From a bacterium (GTDB taxonomy: Bacteria > Patescibacteriota > Minisyncoccia > Phycocordibacterales > UBA2100), in assembly GCA_016789445.1 (NCBI GenBank), contig JAEUQT010000001.1, forward strand, positions 1,308 through 65,307: a stretch of DNA of 64,000 bases, given 5' to 3'. This document shows positions 4,801 to 62,093 of the stretch, piece after piece; positions within the stretch are counted from its first letter, which is position 1; each line of letters starts with the position of its first letter. The notes below the pieces were generated by a model that saw only the letters and a program-made list of their open reading frames with translations, made no database searches and was not told the DNA's origin. Both the position numbers and the translations under genes were made by a program.

Positions 4801-5544
4801 ATGCTGAAACTCGAATCGTTCCAGCGCATACTCCCCGCCTTCGACAAGAGCTCGATGCTCGTCAAAGACTACGAGCTTCTCGAGATGCTCTATCCGTTCA
4901 TCGGCGGCGTGAAGATCGGTCTGGAGGCCATCAACGCTCCGATGCCGGATCACTCGATGCATGTCGGTGACAATCTGCGGAAGTTCGTGCAGACCCGCGC
5001 CGTACCCGTGATGTGGGACGTCAAACTGAACGACATCCCCAATACGGTCGGCGGCGCAGTTGCCAACATTACGCGTAAGCGGGTGTGGGGTATCACGGTC
5101 ATGGCGAGCGCCGGTATCGACGCAGTACGGGCAGCGGTCGCTAAGCGTGCGGATGCGAATATCATCGGCGTCACGGTTCTGACGTCGATGTCACCCGAGG
5201 AGTGCAAAGCCATCTACGGTCGCATTCCAACCGCGCAGGTTTCGTATTTCGCGGAGACTCTCTTCGAAGCTGGCGCGCAGGCAATCGTCTGTTCCCCGCT
5301 CGAGCTTGAAGTCGTCCGGAAAACGATCGGCGACAAGCTGTTCTGCATCACACCGGGAATCCGTCGAAAAGACGCTCCGGCTGACGACCAGAACCGCACG
5401 ATGTCTGCAGGAGACGCCATCAAGGCGGGTGCGGATTACCTCGTCATCGGCCGCCCTATCATGGGCGCGGAGGATCCGGCGGGAGCGGCACGCGCCTTCT
5501 GCGACGAAATCGCAGCGGCAAGCGCTAACCTCTCGATGGTCTAG
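4801..5544 (+). CDS. pyrF: Orotidine 5'-phosphate decarboxylase
   Basis: AGGTGA RBS then ATG at 4801. Product MLKLESFQ...KDAPADDQNRTMSAGDAIKAGADYLVIGRPI matches OMP decarboxylase signatures. The ORF-track start at 4393 would run through the antisense of tRNA-Leu and is not credible. Confidence 0.85.
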   Translation: MLKLESFQRILPAFDKSSMLVKDYELLEMLYPFIGGVKIGLEAINAPMPDHSMHVGDNLRKFVQTRAVPVMWDVKLNDIPNTVGGAVANITRKRVWGITVMASAGIDAVRAAVAKRADANIIGVTVLTSMSPEECKAIYGRIPTAQVSYFAETLFEAGAQAIVCSPLELEVVRKTIGDKLFCITPGIRRKDAPADDQNRTMSAGDAIKAGADYLVIGRPIMGAEDPAGAARAFCDEIAAASANLSMV

Positions 5545-18135: not shown

Positions 18136-18160
18136 AGACCGCGTGCTATATTAGCGCAAC

Positions 18161-18195
18161 GGCCACGTGGTGAAGGGGTACGAGTCTGCACAATC
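18161..18195 (+). pseudogene. Partial 5' copy of tRNA-Cys (pseudo-tRNA fragment)
   Basis: GGCCACGTGGTGAAGGGGTA-C-GAGTCTGCAcaatc matches the first ~40 nt of the intact tRNA-Cys 83 nt downstream, with a 6-nt deletion. It has no 3' half. Confidence 0.7.
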
Positions 18196-18243
18196 TTCTC
18201 CTTTGTCTTACCGCGTGAGTCGTAGATAAAACTGTTTTCTAAA

Positions 18244-18316
18244 GGCCACGTGGTGAAGGGGTAACACGGGAGTCTGCAAAACTCTTACTGCGCGGGTTCG
18301 AGTCCCGCCGTGGCCT
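18244..18316 (+). tRNA. tRNA-Cys (anticodon GCA)
   Basis: Acceptor GGCCACG/CGTGGCC, anticodon loop CTGCAAA, T-arm GCGGGTTCGAGTCCCGC, discriminator U73 typical of tRNA-Cys. Confidence 0.85.
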
Positions 18317-18372
18317 CCGTTTTTGCAAAACCGCTACTGGATGGGTGAGACGGGGTTGGGGCCCCGTCGCAA

Positions 18373-18436
18373 GGCCGGAGACGCTCGGCGTCGAGGCGGG
18401 GTCGCGGAAATTTTCAGCAGAAAATTATCCGTGACC
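18373..18436 (+). repeat. Type-A structured repeat (minimal module)
   Basis: GGCCGGAGacgcTCGGcgtCGAGGCGGGGTCGCGGAAATTTTCagcaGAAAATTATCCGTGACC. Confidence 0.75.
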
Positions 18437-18503
18437 AACTCCACCGCCTCCCCAACCATACAATTGACTAATCCTCATCCTCATTGCAGGATTCCCCTAT
18501 CCT

Positions 18504-18956: not shown

Positions 18957-19037
18957 GCCGGGGTGGCGGAATGGTTTACGCAGACGACTTAAAATCGTTC
19001 ACCGAAAGGTTTGTGGGTTCGAGTCCCACCCCCGGCA
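18957..19037 (+). tRNA. tRNA-Leu (anticodon TAA)
   Basis: Acceptor GCCGGGG/CCCCGGC, D-arm GCGGAATGGTTTACGC, anticodon loop CTTAAAA, long variable arm, T-arm GTGGGTTCGAGTCCCAC. Confidence 0.85.
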
Positions 19038-19040
19038 CAG

Positions 19041-19196
19041 ATTGAGCAGAGCGAAGCTGTGTCGGGGAGAACAGTGCCGACGCACTGTTCGGGTGGGACT
19101 CGAAAGGCGGAGCGATGTTTCGTCAGCAGACGAAACCGCGAGCCGGGGTCGCGAAAAAGTCTGCACGACGGTGCAGACTTTATTCGTGACCGAGCC
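19041..19196 (+). repeat. Type-A composite structured repeat, immediately downstream of tRNA-Leu(TAA)
   Basis: GATTGAGCA...GTGTCGGGGAGAACAGTGCcgacGCACTGTTcggg-GACTCGAAAGGCGGAGCGATGTTTCGTCagcagACGAAACCGCGAGCCGGGGTCGCGAAAAAGTCTGCACgacgGTGCAGACTTTATTCGTGACCGAGCC. Confidence 0.8.
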
Positions 19197-19683: not shown

Positions 19684-19890
19684 CTTGCCCGACGGTGCAA
19701 TAAATTCCGCGACCCCGACTCGCCGCTCCGGCAGCTGCCGGAACATCGCTGCGGCTCGGACGAGTCCTCAAAGATAATGTTCTCGCCGTCGCTCGAAAAT
19801 TTCCCCGAGCCTGGCTCGCGGTTTTGCGTGCTCGCAAAACATCGCTCCGCCTCGGACAAAAGCACAAAACCTCCCACAGGGGAGGTTGTT
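19684..19890 (-). repeat. Tandem type-A structured repeat modules immediately downstream of tRNA-Lys
   Basis: Reverse complement reads CAAAAGACACAACAACCTCCCctgtGGGAGGTTTTGTGCTTTTG-TCCGAGGCGGAGCGATGTTTTGCGagcacGCAAAACCGCGAGCC...ATTATC...GAGCCGCAGCGATGTTCCGGCagctGCCGGAG...GTCGGGGTCGCGGAATTTATTGCACC. Confidence 0.75.
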
Positions 19891-29603: not shown

Positions 29604-29619
29604 TAGTTGAGCTTCGCAA

Positions 29620-29683
29620 GGCCGGAGGCGCTTGGCGCCGAGGCGGGGTCGCGCAAAATCGCAGTAGCGATTTATGCGTGACA
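29620..29683 (+). repeat. Type-A structured repeat (minimal module) after rpsA
   Basis: GGCCGGAGGCGCttgGCGCCGAGGCGGGGTCGCGCAAAATCGCagtaGCGATTTATGCGTGAC. Confidence 0.75.
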
Positions 29684-29820
29684 TCAGTAATCCCAACCGG
29701 CAATTCAAATGCGCCCCAGAGAGGGGCGCATTTGACATATGTGTAAACGCATGTTAAAGAGAATCCTCCTCAAACGTGCTCCACGTGAAAGGCTTTAGAT
29801 ACGTTTACGTCAATCCAGGT

Positions 29821-31867: not shown

Positions 31868-31985
31868 AACGTTTTCAGTTACGCACGATCCCCCGCTCGT
31901 GCGGTCCGGATAAATAGGTATGCGTACTATACTCCCGCACTACCGCTGAAGCGCAGATGAAGAGGTGCGCATGTGCATAACCGCA

Positions 31986-32103
31986 TCGGGATATTTTTCG
32001 TTTGCATTCCGAGGGTTTTCGCAGGCCCGACGGGGCCGAGACTGAGCGCTGCGCCAGCAGGCGCAGATAGCGACCCGAGGGAGGCAAGCGGAAAATATCC
32101 CGA
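31986..32103. repeat. Type-C MITE-like structured repeat with terminal inverted repeats
   Basis: Termini CGGGATATTTTTCG ... GCGGAAAATATCCCG. Core TTCGCAGGCCCGACGGGGCCGAGACTGAGCGCTGCGCCagcagGCGCAGATAGCGACC. Paralog at 54226-54326. Confidence 0.75.
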
Positions 32104-32106
32104 AGA

Positions 32107-32712
32107 TTAGTTGAACTTATTCATCGCGATCTCGCGTCCGTCGCTGACGATCAGCTCCAACGCCTCCCCTGCTTTCTTGAAAACGCTCTTCAGCGCCTGC
32201 ATTTCATCCGCCTTGAACTCGCCGAGGATGAATTTCTCCACTTCAGCCTCTCCCTGCGGCTTCTTCGCGACGCCATCCTTGTTCTCCTTTGAGATTCCGA
32301 GACGTATTCGTACGAATCGCTTCGTCTTCACGGCAGCAGCGATCGAATCGATCCCTTTATGTCCTCCGGAACCGCGATCGAAGGAGATTTTTATCGTTCC
32401 GAGCGGTAGATCGAGATCGTCATAGACGACAACGAGCTTCTCGGCGGCTTTCACGCTCTTTATATAGTGCAGAGCGGCGAGTCCGCTCTTATTCATATAG
32501 GTATTCGGCAGGACCGCGACCGCGATACTCTTACCGATCATGCCGCGCGCGATGAATGATCTCGCACGTGACTCCTCTTTCCACTCGGAGAAGCCGTGTT
32601 TCTCGGCGAATTTCTGCACCATCATGCGTCCGGCGTTATGCCGCGTACGCGCGTACTCTTCGTCGGGGTTTCCTAAGCCGATAACGACCCATGTCATGCG
32701 CATATCGTACAT
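32107..32712 (-). CDS. pth: Peptidyl-tRNA hydrolase
   Basis: VVIGLGNPDEEYARTRHNAG... Confidence 0.9.
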   Translation of the reverse strand: MYDMRMTWVVIGLGNPDEEYARTRHNAGRMMVQKFAEKHGFSEWKEESRARSFIARGMIGKSIAVAVLPNTYMNKSGLAALHYIKSVKAAEKLVVVYDDLDLPLGTIKISFDRGSGGHKGIDSIAAAVKTKRFVRIRLGISKENKDGVAKKPQGEAEVEKFILGEFKADEMQALKSVFKKAGEALELIVSDGREIAMNKFN

Positions 32713-48560: not shown

Positions 48561-48605
48561 CATGAGACACAAAACCTGCCCTGCGGCAGGTTTTGTGCCA
48601 TGTGC

Positions 48606-48762
48606 GAGCCGGAGCGATGTTCCGCCAGCAGGCGGAACCGCGAGGCCGGGTCGGGCGGCAGTTTGCGCGACGGCGCAAGCTGAATGCCTGACCACACATG
48701 AAAGACCGGCGAGACGGGGTCGCGAAAAAATTCGCCTGACGAGGCGGATTTTATTCGTGACC
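48606..48762 (+). repeat. Two tandem type-A structured repeat modules downstream of tRNA-Val
   Basis: GAGCCGGAGCGATGTTCCGCCagcagGCGGAACCGCGAGGCCGGGTCGGGCGG..., then GAGACGGGGTCGCGAAAAAATTCGCCtgacgAGGCGGATTTTATTCGTGACCGATCC. A 15-bp direct repeat TGAATGCCTGACCAC at 48681 and 48818 brackets the second module. Confidence 0.75.
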
Positions 48763-48844
48763 GATCCTTTCTGCTCCATCGCGACGGCGACGGGAATCTC
48801 TGTGACCACTGAGAATTTGAATGCCTGACCACGAGCAACTCTTT

Positions 48845-49825
48845 TCAACCCACCCTCACCACCTTCGCCGGCCGATACGCCAAAAGCCGTAGGTCCTTGA
48901 GATTGATAAGCACGACGAAGAGATTGAGCGCTACGAGCATGACACCGAAGAGCGCGATGAGATCGACTCCGACATTCGAACCAAGGTAGAGAAGGAACTG
49001 CACGAGCGGAGCGTCAGGATCTTCCGCCAATTCCTTAGCGAAGACCTCGCGGACGAATGAGACCGGTCCCGCATAGCTTGCGAATATGATGACACTGCCT
49101 ATGACCGCGCCTGCAGCTGCAGCAACAATGTTGCGCAGCGCCACCCTCCCCGCCTTCATCGTCTGCGGCACATTGAGAAGCTGCAACCGTGCTTGCGCGA
49201 GGAAGACTTCGCCGAACATGATCATCCGTCGCGCGAATCCGCGCCAGAGTCCGAACTTCCGCTCCTTCGGCACCTGTCGCAAATCAGGACACACCCGATA
49301 CAGGAATCCGTTACCCCAATACCGCGCATAGAAATTAAGCGCGATCTCGATCATGAATCGTTCCTTGTAGATGCTCGGGACTTTCTCCCACAACCCGCGC
49401 GTCAGCGCACGCTGTCCGCCGAGCATGGGGATGACGGATACGATGGAACCCACGTAATACATCCGCCAGTTACGCATGGCGATCACCATCTCGCTTTTCC
49501 CCTCTCTCACCGCCGCAAGAATCCCCTCAAGCATCGGAGCATCGATACCGTACATATCGGCATCACAGAAGAAGAGTATGTCAGCGTCCGTCGCGGCAGC
49601 ACCAGTAGCCATCGCACGACCTTTACCTTGATTCTCCGCATGACGAATGAGTCGAATCGGGTACGTCGTCGCGACCGCTGATGTTCCATCATCGGAGCCA
49701 TCATCCACCACGATGACCTGATCGAAACCGGGATACCGGGTGAGCGATTCCAATACGCGGTGAATGTTCCCCGCTTCGTTATACGCTGCAACGATAGCTG
49801 CTATGCGTTTCGTCTTTCCATCCAT
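48845..49825 (-). CDS. Family 2 glycosyltransferase
   Basis: N-terminal AAIVAAYNEAGNI...VVDDGSDDGT and a DxD region, with C-terminal TM helices. Confidence 0.8.
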   Translation of the reverse strand: MDGKTKRIAAIVAAYNEAGNIHRVLESLTRYPGFDQVIVVDDGSDDGTSAVATTYPIRLIRHAENQGKGRAMATGAAATDADILFFCDADMYGIDAPMLEGILAAVREGKSEMVIAMRNWRMYYVGSIVSVIPMLGGQRALTRGLWEKVPSIYKERFMIEIALNFYARYWGNGFLYRVCPDLRQVPKERKFGLWRGFARRMIMFGEVFLAQARLQLLNVPQTMKAGRVALRNIVAAAAGAVIGSVIIFASYAGPVSFVREVFAKELAEDPDAPLVQFLLYLGSNVGVDLIALFGVMLVALNLFVVLINLKDLRLLAYRPAKVVRVG

Positions 49826-54200: not shown

Positions 54201-54225
54201 ACATCCTTTATCAAAAACAGAGCGA

Positions 54226-54326
54226 GGCGGGTATGTTTCTATTGCGGTCTTCGCAGCGCCGACGGGCGCGAGACTGAGCGCTGGGCCAGCAGGCCCAGAT
54301 AGCGACCGCAATTGGAACATATCCGC
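54226..54326. repeat. Type-C MITE-like structured repeat with terminal inverted repeats
   Basis: Termini GCGGGTATGTTTCTATTGCGG ... CCGCAATTGGAACATATCCGC. Core TTCGCAGCGCCGACGGGCGCGAGACTGAGCGCTGGGCCagcagGCCCAGATAGCGACC. Stems covary relative to copy C1. Confidence 0.75.
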
Positions 54327-54347
54327 GAGCGGCGGTGCTAGAATAGC

Positions 54348-55064: not shown

Positions 55065-55565
55065 ATGAATAAGTTCTTCTCGCGCCTTACCGGTTCCAAC
55101 GATGACCAATACGATGATTTCCTCGATGACCCTCGCGGAAACCACATCTCTTTTTCAACCAAGGGCCCTGAGCGCCATGCGAGCGTACCGGTACGCCAAG
55201 AAACACGCTCCATCCAGCCGGTGCAGGAAGACACCGAAGGCGAATTGGCAGTCGATGTCTACCAGACGCCTGATCATATCGTCGTCAAAGCGCTCGTCGC
55301 CGGCGTCCAGCCGGCAACTATCGATATCTCTCTTACCCGCGAGATGCTCACCATCTCAGGTGTACGCGCAGACGAACGCGAAGTCGATGAGGACAACTAC
55401 TACCAGCGCGAGCTCTATTGGGGTTCGTTCTCCCGCACCATCCTGCTGCCTGAAGAGATCGATGTCGATGGCGCAGAAGCGAGCGAGAAGCACGGCATCC
55501 TCATGATCCGACTCCCGAAGATCAATAAGAAACGCGAGACCAAGCTCAAAGTCCGCGCCCGCTAA
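55065..55565 (+). CDS. Hsp20/alpha-crystallin family small heat-shock protein
   Basis: ACD core ELAVDVYQTPDHIVVKALVAGV...GVLMIRLPK pattern. Confidence 0.85.
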   Translation: MNKFFSRLTGSNDDQYDDFLDDPRGNHISFSTKGPERHASVPVRQETRSIQPVQEDTEGELAVDVYQTPDHIVVKALVAGVQPATIDISLTREMLTISGVRADEREVDEDNYYQRELYWGSFSRTILLPEEIDVDGAEASEKHGILMIRLPKINKKRETKLKVRAR

Positions 55566-55599
55566 CCAAAACCGCCCCGAAAGGGGCGGTTTTGGTTAG
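55564..55599. terminator. Bidirectional rho-independent terminator
   Basis: AACCAAAACCGCCCCGAAAGGGGCGGTTTTGGTT. Confidence 0.8.
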
Positions 55600-55605
55600 G
55601 TTTTC

Positions 55606-55681
55606 TTGGTGCTTGGGACCGGGGTCGAACCGGTGACCCTTCCCTCTTCAGGGGAATGCTCTACCAACTGAGCTACCCAAG
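55606..55681 (-). tRNA. tRNA-Phe (anticodon GAA), CCA encoded
   Basis: Reverse complement reads GCTTGGG-TA-GCTCAGTTGGTAGAGC-A-TTCCCCTGAAGAGGGAA-GGGTC-ACCGGTTCGACCCCGGT-CCCAAGC-A-CCA. Confidence 0.9.
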
Positions 55682-55803
55682 CAGAATCTCCGAAAGGTTC
55701 CGGAGATTCTTTGAGAACCCTCGGTTCTCAACGGGCTATTTCGCTTCGCTCATAGCCCTGCTCTCCTACACGGGAAAACTACAGTTTTCCCGCCCCCTTT
55801 CGG
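55682..55803 (-). repeat. Type-B structured repeat (copy B3) abutting the 5' end of tRNA-Phe
   Basis: Reverse complement reads GGGGGCGGGAAAACtgtagGTTTTCCC-GTGTAGGAGAGCAGGGCTATgagcgaagcgaaATAGCCCG-TTGAGAACCgaggGTTCTCAAAGAATCTCCggaacctttcGGAGATTCTG. Confidence 0.75.
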
Positions 55804-57440: not shown

Positions 57441-57462
57441 TCAAGCATGAAAATTATGTGTG

Positions 57463-57534
57463 TGCTCCCGGCCAGAATCGAACTGACATCAAACCATTAG
57501 GAACGGTTCGTTCTATCCATTGAACTACGGGAGC
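57463..57534 (-). tRNA. tRNA-Arg (anticodon CCT)
   Basis: Reverse complement reads GCTCCCG-TA-GTTCAATGGATAGAAC-G-AACCGTTCCTAATGGTT-TGATG-TCAGTTCGATTCTGG-CCGGGAGC-A. Confidence 0.8.
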
Positions 57535-59706: not shown

Positions 59707-59891
59707 AGCCGTATAATCTTATCACCCTATGAGTTTCCTCTTTCACCGAAAGACCAAGAAGGTCTTGAACGCGATCTGGGCAGTCGTCGCAGTACTCATC
59801 ATCATCAGCATGGTACTGTTCTTCGCTCCAGGCCTCGTCGACCTCATTATCTAGGCTTTCGCCCAAAAATCTCGAATCCGCGTCGTTGCGG

Positions 59892-59990
59892 ATCACGCAT
59901 AAATCGCTGGTGCGATTTTGCGTGACCCCGCCTCGCAGCCGAGCTGCTCCGGCCTTGCGACGGGGTCCCAACCCCGCCTCACCTCTGCGT
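59892..59990 (-). repeat. Type-A structured repeat (reverse orientation) downstream of lepA
   Basis: GTCACGCATAAATCGCtggtGCGATTTTGCGTGACCCCGCCTCGCAGCcgagCTGCTCCGGCC is the reverse complement of the consensus seen at 29620-29683, with a compensatory loop change. Confidence 0.75.
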
Positions 59991-61865: not shown

Positions 61866-61915
61866 ACATTACGCAGTGTACAGAAGCATGGACTTGAGAG
61901 CGCACATTGTTCGAA

Positions 61916-62003
61916 AGGGGTCGGGAAAACTGTAGTTTTCCCGTGGAGGAAGGCAGGCCGCTGTGCGGCCGTTGGAAACCGTGGGTTTCCAAGGAGCCGT
62001 GGT
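61916..62003 (+). repeat. Type-B structured repeat (copy B4) inserted between the lepA start and a duplicated lepA 5' fragment
   Basis: GAAAGGGGTCGGGAAAACtgtagGTTTTCCC-GTGGAGGAAGGCAGGCCGCtgtGCGGCC-GTTGGAAACCgtggGTTTCCAAGG. Confidence 0.75.
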
Positions 62004-62018
62004 TGCGGCGACGATGGG

Positions 62019-62054
62019 TGCAATGATCGAAAAGTTGCGGATGTGGCTGGACAC
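62019..62054 (-). pseudogene. Duplicated, diverged 5' fragment of lepA (12 codons, GTG start) fused in frame to repeat B4
   Basis: GTGTCCAGCCACATCCGCAACTTTTCGATCATTGCA encodes MSSHIRNFSIIA, identical to the LepA N-terminus, with 9 synonymous nucleotide differences from the current gene. The frame then reads through repeat B4 to a stop at 61869. Confidence 0.65.
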
Positions 62055-62093
62055 GGGCTCAGTGTGCGCTAAAAACCGCTGAAAAACAAGGTT

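Follow-up and report, generated by a model that had tools for sequence, protein, structure and literature searches.

Type C hairpins, an apparently undescribed family of mobile or copied structured elements in Patescibacteria

Bacterial genomes harbour several kinds of interspersed structured repeats, such as the ERIC/IRU, BOX, RUP and Correia (NEMIS) elements, which are thought to affect RNA stability or processing and behave like mobile DNA. REP/BIME-RAYT systems are recognized by an imperfect palindrome of 20-40 nt, a 5′ GTAG-like tetranucleotide and a RAYT gene. Small self-cleaving ribozymes, such as hammerhead and twister, for their part, combine conservation centred on the junction with covarying stems. 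The Patescibacteria (CPR), in which the elements described here are found, have genomes that are among the smallest and most streamlined of all bacteria.

The present analysis concerns a 64-kb stretch of DNA, called the window here and taken at its full length, with 56% G+C, 13 scattered tRNA genes and housekeeping genes throughout. Among named organisms, Parcubacteria and Kaiserbacteria MAGs encode the proteins most closely related to its Pth and PrsW. An initial annotation of the window had described two copies of an element, type C, as MITE-like units with terminal inverted repeats (TIRs) and covarying internal hairpins. Type C is apparently an undescribed family of small non-coding hairpins in Patescibacteria: no CPR RNA motif, MITE or core sequence corresponding to it was found in the literature. 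In Rfam 15, the whole window matched only tRNAs at gathering thresholds, and a local search of 300 nt around both copies, at E up to 10, gave nothing relevant, self-cleaving ribozymes included.

Type C copies in the window and the wider family

Both copies are confirmed on the + strand, at 31986-32103 (copy 1) and 54227-54326 (copy 2), and they have a 57-nt core in common. Their parts and immediate surroundings are as follows, copy 1 being given before copy 2 where a line holds both.

31982-32106, + strand: copy 1 insert, made up of CGCA, the hairpin and AGA; absent at orthologous pth sites
31986-32017, + strand: 5′ arm of the outer stem P1 of copy 1, the left "TIR" of the initial annotation (inverted repeat, minimum-free-energy fold)
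32018-32074, + strand: core of copy 1, a predicted three-way junction (gapless alignment, pair counts, RNAalifold, 94.8 bits)
32072-32103, + strand: 3′ arm of P1 of copy 1, the right "TIR" (inverted repeat, fold)
54222-54226, + strand: GCGAG at the 5′ foot of the copy 2 hairpin (read directly in the flanks)
54227-54249, + strand: 5′ arm of P1 of copy 2 (inverted repeat; homologous to the arms of L015 and L031, with compensatory changes)
54250-54306, + strand: core of copy 2 (covariance model, 103.8 bits; orthologues in L015 and L031 with identical 30 unpaired columns)
54304-54330, + strand: 3′ arm of P1 of copy 2 with the CGAGC foot (inverted repeat)
32018-32024 and 54250-54256, + strand: TTCGCAG of the shared core; J1 is TTCGCA(G) in copy 1 and 54250-54255 in copy 2
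32024-32037 and 54256-54269, + strand: hairpin 1 of the shared core, with a GACG loop
32029-32032 and 54261-54264, + strand: loop of hairpin 1
32038-32048 and 54270-54280, + strand: J2 of the shared core, GAGACTGAGCG
32049-32066 and 54281-54298, + strand: hairpin 2 of the shared core, with an AGCA loop
32056-32059 and 54288-54291, + strand: loop of hairpin 2
32067-32074 and 54299-54306, + strand: J3 (ATAGC) and the closing GAC; J3 itself is 32067-32071 in copy 1 and 54299-54303 in copy 2, where GAC is 54304-54306
54337-54345: promoter-like TGCTAGAAT of prsW, downstream of the 3′ arm of copy 2 and followed by the prsW start codon

On the + strand, the predicted folding energies of copies 1 and 2 are -72 and -64 kcal/mol (z = -8.0 and -7.5), against -56 and -54 kcal/mol on the - strand (z = -4.3 and -4.8), an advantage of 10-16 kcal/mol for the + strand. 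Within the window, the 14-mer GAGACTGAGCGCTG is matched exactly by these two copies alone. A covariance model of the family scores copy 1 at 94.8 bits and copy 2 at 103.8 bits, the next match being the antisense of copy 2 at 24 bits; with the filters off, it gives no third copy in the window. Taken together, the folding z-scores, the uniqueness of the 14-mer and the covariance scores indicate that the copies are not due to chance. A match with two mismatches at 48920 was considered as a third copy and rejected as a chance match in coding-like sequence.

The internal stems do covary between the two copies, as had been proposed: two base pairs differ in hairpin 1 and one in hairpin 2, and all of these differences are compensatory. 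Likewise, each copy is bounded by its own inverted repeat, with arms longer than the ~14-20 bp first assigned to them; the inverted-repeat search gave 31 nt in copy 1 (31986-32016 and 32073-32103, 81% complementary) and 23 nt in copy 2 (54227-54249 and 54304-54326, 87% complementary). The two pairs of arms have no sequence relation to each other, again in agreement with the initial annotation.

In many copies of the family, CGAG faces a second CGAG, within P1 in some and at the hairpin foot in others. For instance, it is found inside P1 in copy 1 (32010-32013 against 32077-32080), while copy 2 has GCGAG (54222-54226) and CGAGC (54326-54330) as feet. These facing motifs could form tandem G·A pairs, which in copy 2 would make up a basal helix. 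GCGAG...CGAGC feet also flank many other copies and element types (in the flanks of loci L007, L013, L015, L017, L031, L047, L051 and L071). A target-site duplication is the less likely reading of these feet. The motif is missing from the empty sites in L072 and L073, and the feet are therefore more likely to be part of the element.

A scan of one genome per species with an exact pattern returned 14 loci, 13 of which are true and lie in Patescibacteria MAGs without exception; the other one (L008) is a chance pattern match in a coding region of Thermalbibacter. Metagenome contigs searched with a looser pattern gave 47 loci, mostly from groundwater. Once duplicates are removed, there are 39 distinct copies, well beyond the two in the window, and all come from Patescibacteria (Kaiserbacteria/Parcubacteria) genomes or groundwater metagenomes. 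They are non-coding, multicopy and about 95-165 nt in size; the MAG H43-bin093_1 has at least five and the 588-kb contig Ga0082335_1000019 at least six. None was found in the viral contigs scanned. The covariance model built from the 39-copy alignment gave 63 matches of at least 65 bits in 0.48 Mb of fetched loci, the next one being at 22 bits. Both database scans demanded exact J2, loop 2 and J3, so that diverged members would be missed and the invariance of the core is partly by construction.

The 39 copies align over 93 columns with zero gaps, the lengths of helices and loops being constant. In a model with three helices (P1, hairpin 1 and hairpin 2), 93.7% of the cells are paired, in contrast to 35-47% in controls with shifted 3′ partners. 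In 22 of the 30 pairs, both sides have changed (14 of 18 in P1, 4 of 5 in hairpin 1 and 4 of 7 in hairpin 2), and RNAalifold independently predicts the identical three helices. By contrast with the stems, only two of the 30 unpaired core columns vary. The loops of the family are GRCG in hairpin 1 and AGCA in hairpin 2. Across the alignment, G·U or U·G occurs 64 times and A·C or C·A eight times. This excess implies that the structure is selected on one strand alone, the core-sense strand, which fits either RNA or single-stranded DNA. The alignment thus establishes the predicted three-helix structure and its strand polarity. Since the arms covary as a helix, with G·U in excess on one strand, the "TIRs" of the initial annotation are to be read as the outer stem P1 of the predicted fold and not as conserved protein-binding ends.

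Placement, insertion and retention

Not one type C copy is located inside a gene, and nearly every copy adjoins a stop codon, in either orientation. The orientation of the copies relative to their two neighbouring genes is random (opposite/opposite 12, same/same 10, same/opposite 6, opposite/same 4), and with respect to GC skew there is a weak bias, with 24 negative and 12 positive. In the window, copy 1 ends 3 nt from the stop codon of pth, which is on the opposite strand, so that the copy is in antisense orientation; copy 2 begins 21 nt after the valS stop codon, in sense orientation. Many copies, copy 1 among them, are antisense to both neighbours, and their sense strand would need a promoter of its own. 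No promoter-like or terminator-like consensus flanks copy 1 or copy 2. As for intrinsic terminators, the terminator scan has no match at either copy and the sequence after P1 is not U-rich.

In one subfamily, named H43, the terminal TAG...CTA of the hairpin provides the stop codons of the flanking ORFs, which have 112-780 codons and are often convergent. A canonical bidirectional terminator hairpin of the window (55562-55599) likewise has a stop codon in its base, that of hsp20 (CTAA...TTAG), as in the termini of H43-type copies. In L037, a type C copy follows hsp20 at the position of this terminator.

In the pth-LTD spacer of the window, a conserved TGTGCATAAC box (31972-31981) is separated from the stop codon of pth (32107-32109, - strand) by a 125-nt insert (31982-32106), which holds the hairpin complete with its outer stem. 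Pth homologues were used to fetch the pth loci of related genomes, which represent six lineages with Pth 73-92% identical to that of the window (L062/63, 91%; L066/67, 92%; L068, 84%; L064/65, 80%; L069, 75%; L070, 73%). In the first five of these, the pth stop codon is followed by 0-7 nt and then by the GTTATGCACA box, and in L070 the position of the insert is taken by 41 nt of unrelated sequence. The covariance model finds type C in none of the pth loci from L062 to L070. Copy 1 is thus absent from the orthologous site in all six related lineages. It was also considered whether the core of copy 1 had been inserted into an older terminator hairpin. This idea was rejected, since the empty pth sites are also without the outer stem; the whole hairpin is the apparent unit gained. 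No direct repeat is present at the edges of the insert, and the check for a target-site duplication at copy 1 was therefore negative.

The box at 31972-31981, which reads GTTATGCACA on the - strand directly after the pth stop codon and is conserved in L062-L070, resembles a DnaA box (TTATNCACA). Copy 1 is inserted exactly between this motif and the stop codon. The DnaA-box-like motif has two matches in the window against 0.58 expected; a cluster marking a replication origin was considered and dismissed, as the window has these two boxes only.

Copy 2 presents the opposite case to copy 1. Its counterparts in L015 and L031 have the same valS and prsW flanks and homologous P1 arms, and the three are orthologous. 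Among the window, L015 and L031, identity at four-fold degenerate sites is only 43-55% in valS and prsW, and no alignment is possible for the spacer 5′ of the copy. Nevertheless, all 30 unpaired core columns are identical in each of the three pairwise comparisons, and the stem positions are identical at 16-22 of 24, through compensatory changes. Ten of the 30 unpaired columns (J1 and loop 1) lie outside every search pattern, so that this conservation is no ascertainment artefact. Copy 2 is thus old, having been kept despite near-saturated synonymous divergence. The invariant core reflects either purifying selection on the resident copy or repeated repair by gene conversion; short-tract conversion from active copies could mimic selection in place. 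According to the initial annotation, the same sequence at orthologous loci in relatives, together with no more than these two copies genome-wide, would point to a conserved regulatory element rather than a mobile one; such retention is observed for copy 2 and not for copy 1 at the pth site. As far as genome comparison can tell, both the placement at stop codons and the conservation in place are well established, and type C shows what is generally expected of a structured RNA, namely covariation, a difference between the strands and conservation exceeding the neutral rate.

There are further signs of mobility. Four pairs of copies are 96-99% identical over 147-157 nt and have unrelated flanks; two of these pairs lie within one MAG. 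The lepA-murJ spacer holds a type C copy in L007 and consists of 56 nt alone in L015, while in the window (61866-62093) it contains about 160 nt of a different structured sequence, absent from L015. Since the type C copy of L007 is at the site of the structured insert of the window, this spacer is another insertion hotspot. Similarly, the valS-prsW spacer, which carries type C in the window, L015 and L031, is occupied in L071 and L074 by other hairpin elements, again on a GCGAG...CGAGC base; L072 and L073 have an empty spacer, and L037 has an extra gene there. Presence/absence polymorphism between related genomes is therefore evident at the compared loci, and type C spreads within and between genomes, that is, it is mobile or at least copied. 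The claim of mobility is in this way borne out by the insertion of copy 1 and by near-identical copies in unrelated flanks.

Two further arrangements of copies were observed. The copy at 410-502 of L057 has a 5′ half of the H43 type and a 3′ half identical to the L060 copy, and it may have arisen by recombination between copies within the common core, or else be a chimera made at the repeat during metagenome assembly. In L019 (145-237, + strand, and 5351-5443, - strand), and also in L025, two inverted copies 5.1 kb apart bracket genes for an FAD-oxidase, a flavodoxin-like protein and a membrane protein, an arrangement that resembles a composite element or an island boundary.

Shared blocks and modularity

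The window also contains elements named type A, which the initial annotation had linked to type C through an AGCAG-loop hairpin. The link is real and stronger than had been claimed. The sequence GAGNCNNAGCGNTG has five matches in the window (two in type C, three in type A) against 0.29 expected, each followed by a hairpin with an AGCA or AGCU loop. Moreover, hairpins of at least 6 bp with an AGCA loop number nine in the window against 0.57 expected, a sixteen-fold enrichment. Type A also has a hairpin with a GACG loop, and its blocks are in a different order from those of type C. The strict type A motif is limited to the window, being absent from the other loci, and a local search of Rfam around type A, at E up to 10, gave nothing relevant. 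It could be hypothesized, as was initially suggested, that one binding protein is common to both types.

The outer chassis of the H43 subfamily and the GCGAG...CGAGC base each carry different apical modules as well. In L071 (1336-1480), L074 (1312-1490) and L016 (8733-8890), a basal chassis of type C, either the GCGAG...CGAGC feet or the H43 outer stem, is combined with other apical modules, some of which have hairpins with AGCA or AGUA loops.

Elements of type A or B lie on the + strand of the window at ~870-975, 18340-18440, 19091-19190, 29604-29690 and 48600-48780, and on the - strand at 19690-19860 and 59890-59985. Their shared unit is (G)CGAG-N-CGGGGUCGCG...hairpin...CGUGACC, with no Rfam match. 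Most immediately follow a tRNA gene (Cys, Leu, Val, Lys) or a protein gene and share its orientation; L015 lacks the element at the site orthologous to 59890-59985. A 14-nt stretch in the 3′ part of tRNA-Leu(UAA) (19018-19031) recurs 59 nt downstream as its perfect inverted complement (19091-19104), at the 5′ edge of a type A element. Around tRNA-Cys, a 23-nt direct repeat (18158-18180 and 18241-18263, 96% identical, 83 nt apart) has its second copy over the 3 nt before the gene and its first 20 nt; this looks like the att-site remnant of an integration. Finally, tRNA-Phe (55607-55682) and tRNA-Arg (57462-57534) are inverted in place with respect to the otherwise collinear L015, and tRNA-Arg is so with respect to L031 too.

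Interpretation and comparison with known systems

The best explanation, to which about an even chance is given, is that type C is a mobile, modular structured element, most likely RNA, with a junction that docks a putative trans-acting factor. A long stem, free to vary in sequence provided that pairing holds, is capped by a three-way junction of fixed length, about 57 nt, with two hairpins (GRCG and AGCA loops) and ~30 unpaired nucleotides that are almost invariant. The element would act as a folded single strand of one polarity, and this strand is most likely RNA rather than single-stranded DNA. The hairpin lands directly behind stop codons, in the position of a terminator and in either orientation, and spreads within and between genomes; once resident, it can persist over very long periods, probably through purifying selection. 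The junction and loops, being invariant, may form a compact tertiary fold that docks one factor, for which the candidates would be a mobilising enzyme, a protein that binds or processes RNA, or both. The remaining task of the outer stem would be to present this fold and to insulate or terminate neighbouring transcripts. The element is modular, with the block of GAGNCNNAGCGNTG and AGCA hairpin and the GACG-loop hairpin reordered in type A, and with the basal chassis bearing other apical modules.

Two alternatives place the mobile form in DNA. Type C could be a derivative of a single-stranded DNA transposon, similar to IS200/IS605 PATEs or REP-RAYT, in which a Y1/HUH enzyme encoded elsewhere in the genome recognizes the hairpins; the element would be excised and inserted as single-stranded DNA, without duplicating its target, and conservation of the core would stem from its role as the recognition site of the enzyme. 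The strand-specific pairing, which tolerates G·T (G·U 64 against A·C 8), the insertion of copy 1 without a target-site duplication, an orientation independent of transcription, the young near-identical copies and the non-coding length of 95-165 nt all suit this idea, yet the conserved hairpins are central and not subterminal, the ends vary between copies and no GTAG-type REP signature is present. Moreover, the GC-skew bias is not only weak but opposite to the orientation expected, reportedly from work on IS608, for a top strand on the lagging-strand template. The window has no Y1 or RAYT gene, and the conservation of copy 2 in place over near-saturated synonymous divergence would be unexpected for a purely selfish copy. 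This derivation is considered unlikely. A classical MITE, for which a DDE transposase would bind the TIRs of double-stranded DNA and duplicate a short target such as TA, is very unlikely. Its case comes from presence/absence polymorphism and from the H43 subfamily, where the termini (TA)GAGCATGTTTGAAA...TTTCAAACATGCTC(TA) are conserved, copies are 82-99% identical and most are flanked by TA, and whose termini are also found in a second element type. Nevertheless, arms are conserved only within this subfamily; across the whole family, unrelated ends enclose an invariant interior, the reverse of a MITE. Even in H43, terminal positions change compensatorily (TTAGA...TCTAA, TAGT...ACTA) and thus behave as a stem, and TA, which is palindromic with that stem, is not present to the left of L012 or L022; copy 1 has no TA flank. 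The G·U asymmetry also implies a single-stranded form, and the 61 window ORFs of at least 105 aa gave no match to a transposase, RAYT, reverse transcriptase or integrase. From the MITE-like label, what stands is that the elements are small, multicopy and polymorphic for insertion; TIRs conserved family-wide and a transposase in the window do not belong to the picture. Mobility is real, and the label is right only in part; of the features that define a MITE mechanistically, none is established.

Two other explanations take function at the RNA level or in cis as their starting point. In a special case of the RNA reading, type C would be a small self-cleaving ribozyme, or else an RNA that is catalytic in another way or binds a ligand; the junction would be the active site and type A a permuted relative. 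An anatomy resembling that of hammerhead or twister-type ribozymes (a three-way junction, about 30 invariant unpaired nucleotides and variable stems with perfect covariation), the zero length variation in 39 multicopy, intergenic copies of either orientation and the shared blocks reordered in type A are suggestive of it, but no Rfam ribozyme matches even at E up to 10 in the 300-nt search, a cleavage site cannot be inferred and copies that oppose all transcription around them would be silent, which makes it very doubtful. Alternatively, an immobile cis-regulatory or terminator element of the upstream gene might have been inherited vertically, the copies of the window stemming from an ancient duplication. 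Copy 2 would agree with this, as it is conserved at the orthologous 3′ end of valS in sense orientation, and so would the terminator position of copies abutting stop codons, given that the canonical terminator at 55562-55599 likewise has a stop codon within its base. Against it, the empty sites of copy 1 in six related lineages and the young, near-identical copies in unrelated flanks argue strongly, at least as a full account; the random orientation relative to the upstream gene, the lack of a U-tract or a terminator-scan match at either copy and the functionally unrelated neighbouring genes add to this, and such an element is highly improbable as the explanation.

A more far-reaching version of the mobile RNA element, thought quite unlikely, is that the junction constitutes a new catalytic or autonomous class of RNA on a self-copying hairpin, with type A and the other modules as alternative payloads on a shared chassis. 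If true, this catalytic reading would amount to an RNA-centred mobile-element system without a protein gene of its own. In any case, a streamlined lineage still keeps several non-coding copies of 100-160 nt, with a junction more conserved than the neighbouring housekeeping proteins. Type C is a candidate for a new RNA fold, or for the spread of small repeats without conserved ends, and it may be used as a marker of rearrangement and assembly breakpoints in CPR metagenome bins.

With respect to known systems, TIGR arrays consist of tandem alternating repeats of 8-12 nt with ~9-nt spacers beside a Nop-domain gene (PMC12045711). TIGR (Tas) arrays were rejected as a match: type C occurs as dispersed single units, and no Nop-domain protein is encoded in the window. 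Like classical MITEs, type C elements are small, non-coding and multicopy, with inverted-repeat ends and insertion polymorphism; unlike them, the ends vary as a base-paired stem around an invariant interior, copy 1 lacks a target-site duplication and there is no known parent IS. The junction-centred conservation, covarying stems, multiple copies and orientation-independent intergenic placement are reminiscent of hammerhead, twister, twister-sister, hatchet and pistol ribozymes, and small self-cleaving ribozymes, too, have relatives with modules in a different order. In contrast to these, type C has no Rfam match and its core fits none of their consensus motifs.

The REP/BIME elements with RAYT and the PATEs of IS200/IS605 share with type C strand-specific hairpins, the lack of a target-site duplication, as seen at the copy 1 insertion, a position after genes and a non-autonomous nature. 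By contrast, type C has a three-way junction, no GTAG-like motif and hairpins that are central rather than subterminal; it is much larger than a REP (95-165 nt), no RAYT, TnpA or Y1_Tnp gene was found in the window, and, unlike in the PATEs of IS200/IS605, its bias towards a replication-tied orientation is weak.

The ERIC/IRU, BOX, RUP and Correia elements differ from type C in several respects, since in type C the apical three-way junction is conserved, its ~30 unpaired nucleotides being invariant and its helices fixed in length, the terminal stem can vary freely, the hosts are Patescibacteria and there is no sequence similarity; unlike Correia elements, it is also without a demonstrable TA duplication. 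Nevertheless, these elements and type C alike are non-coding, multicopy, imperfect long hairpins of about 100-170 nt, located near gene ends in transcribed intergenic regions, in either orientation and patchily at orthologous sites, and BOX shares a modular composition with type C. Type C unites the traits of such mobile elements (insertion polymorphism, young copies) with those of functional RNAs (covariation, strand polarity, long-term conservation in place), two sets of properties that are usually discussed separately.
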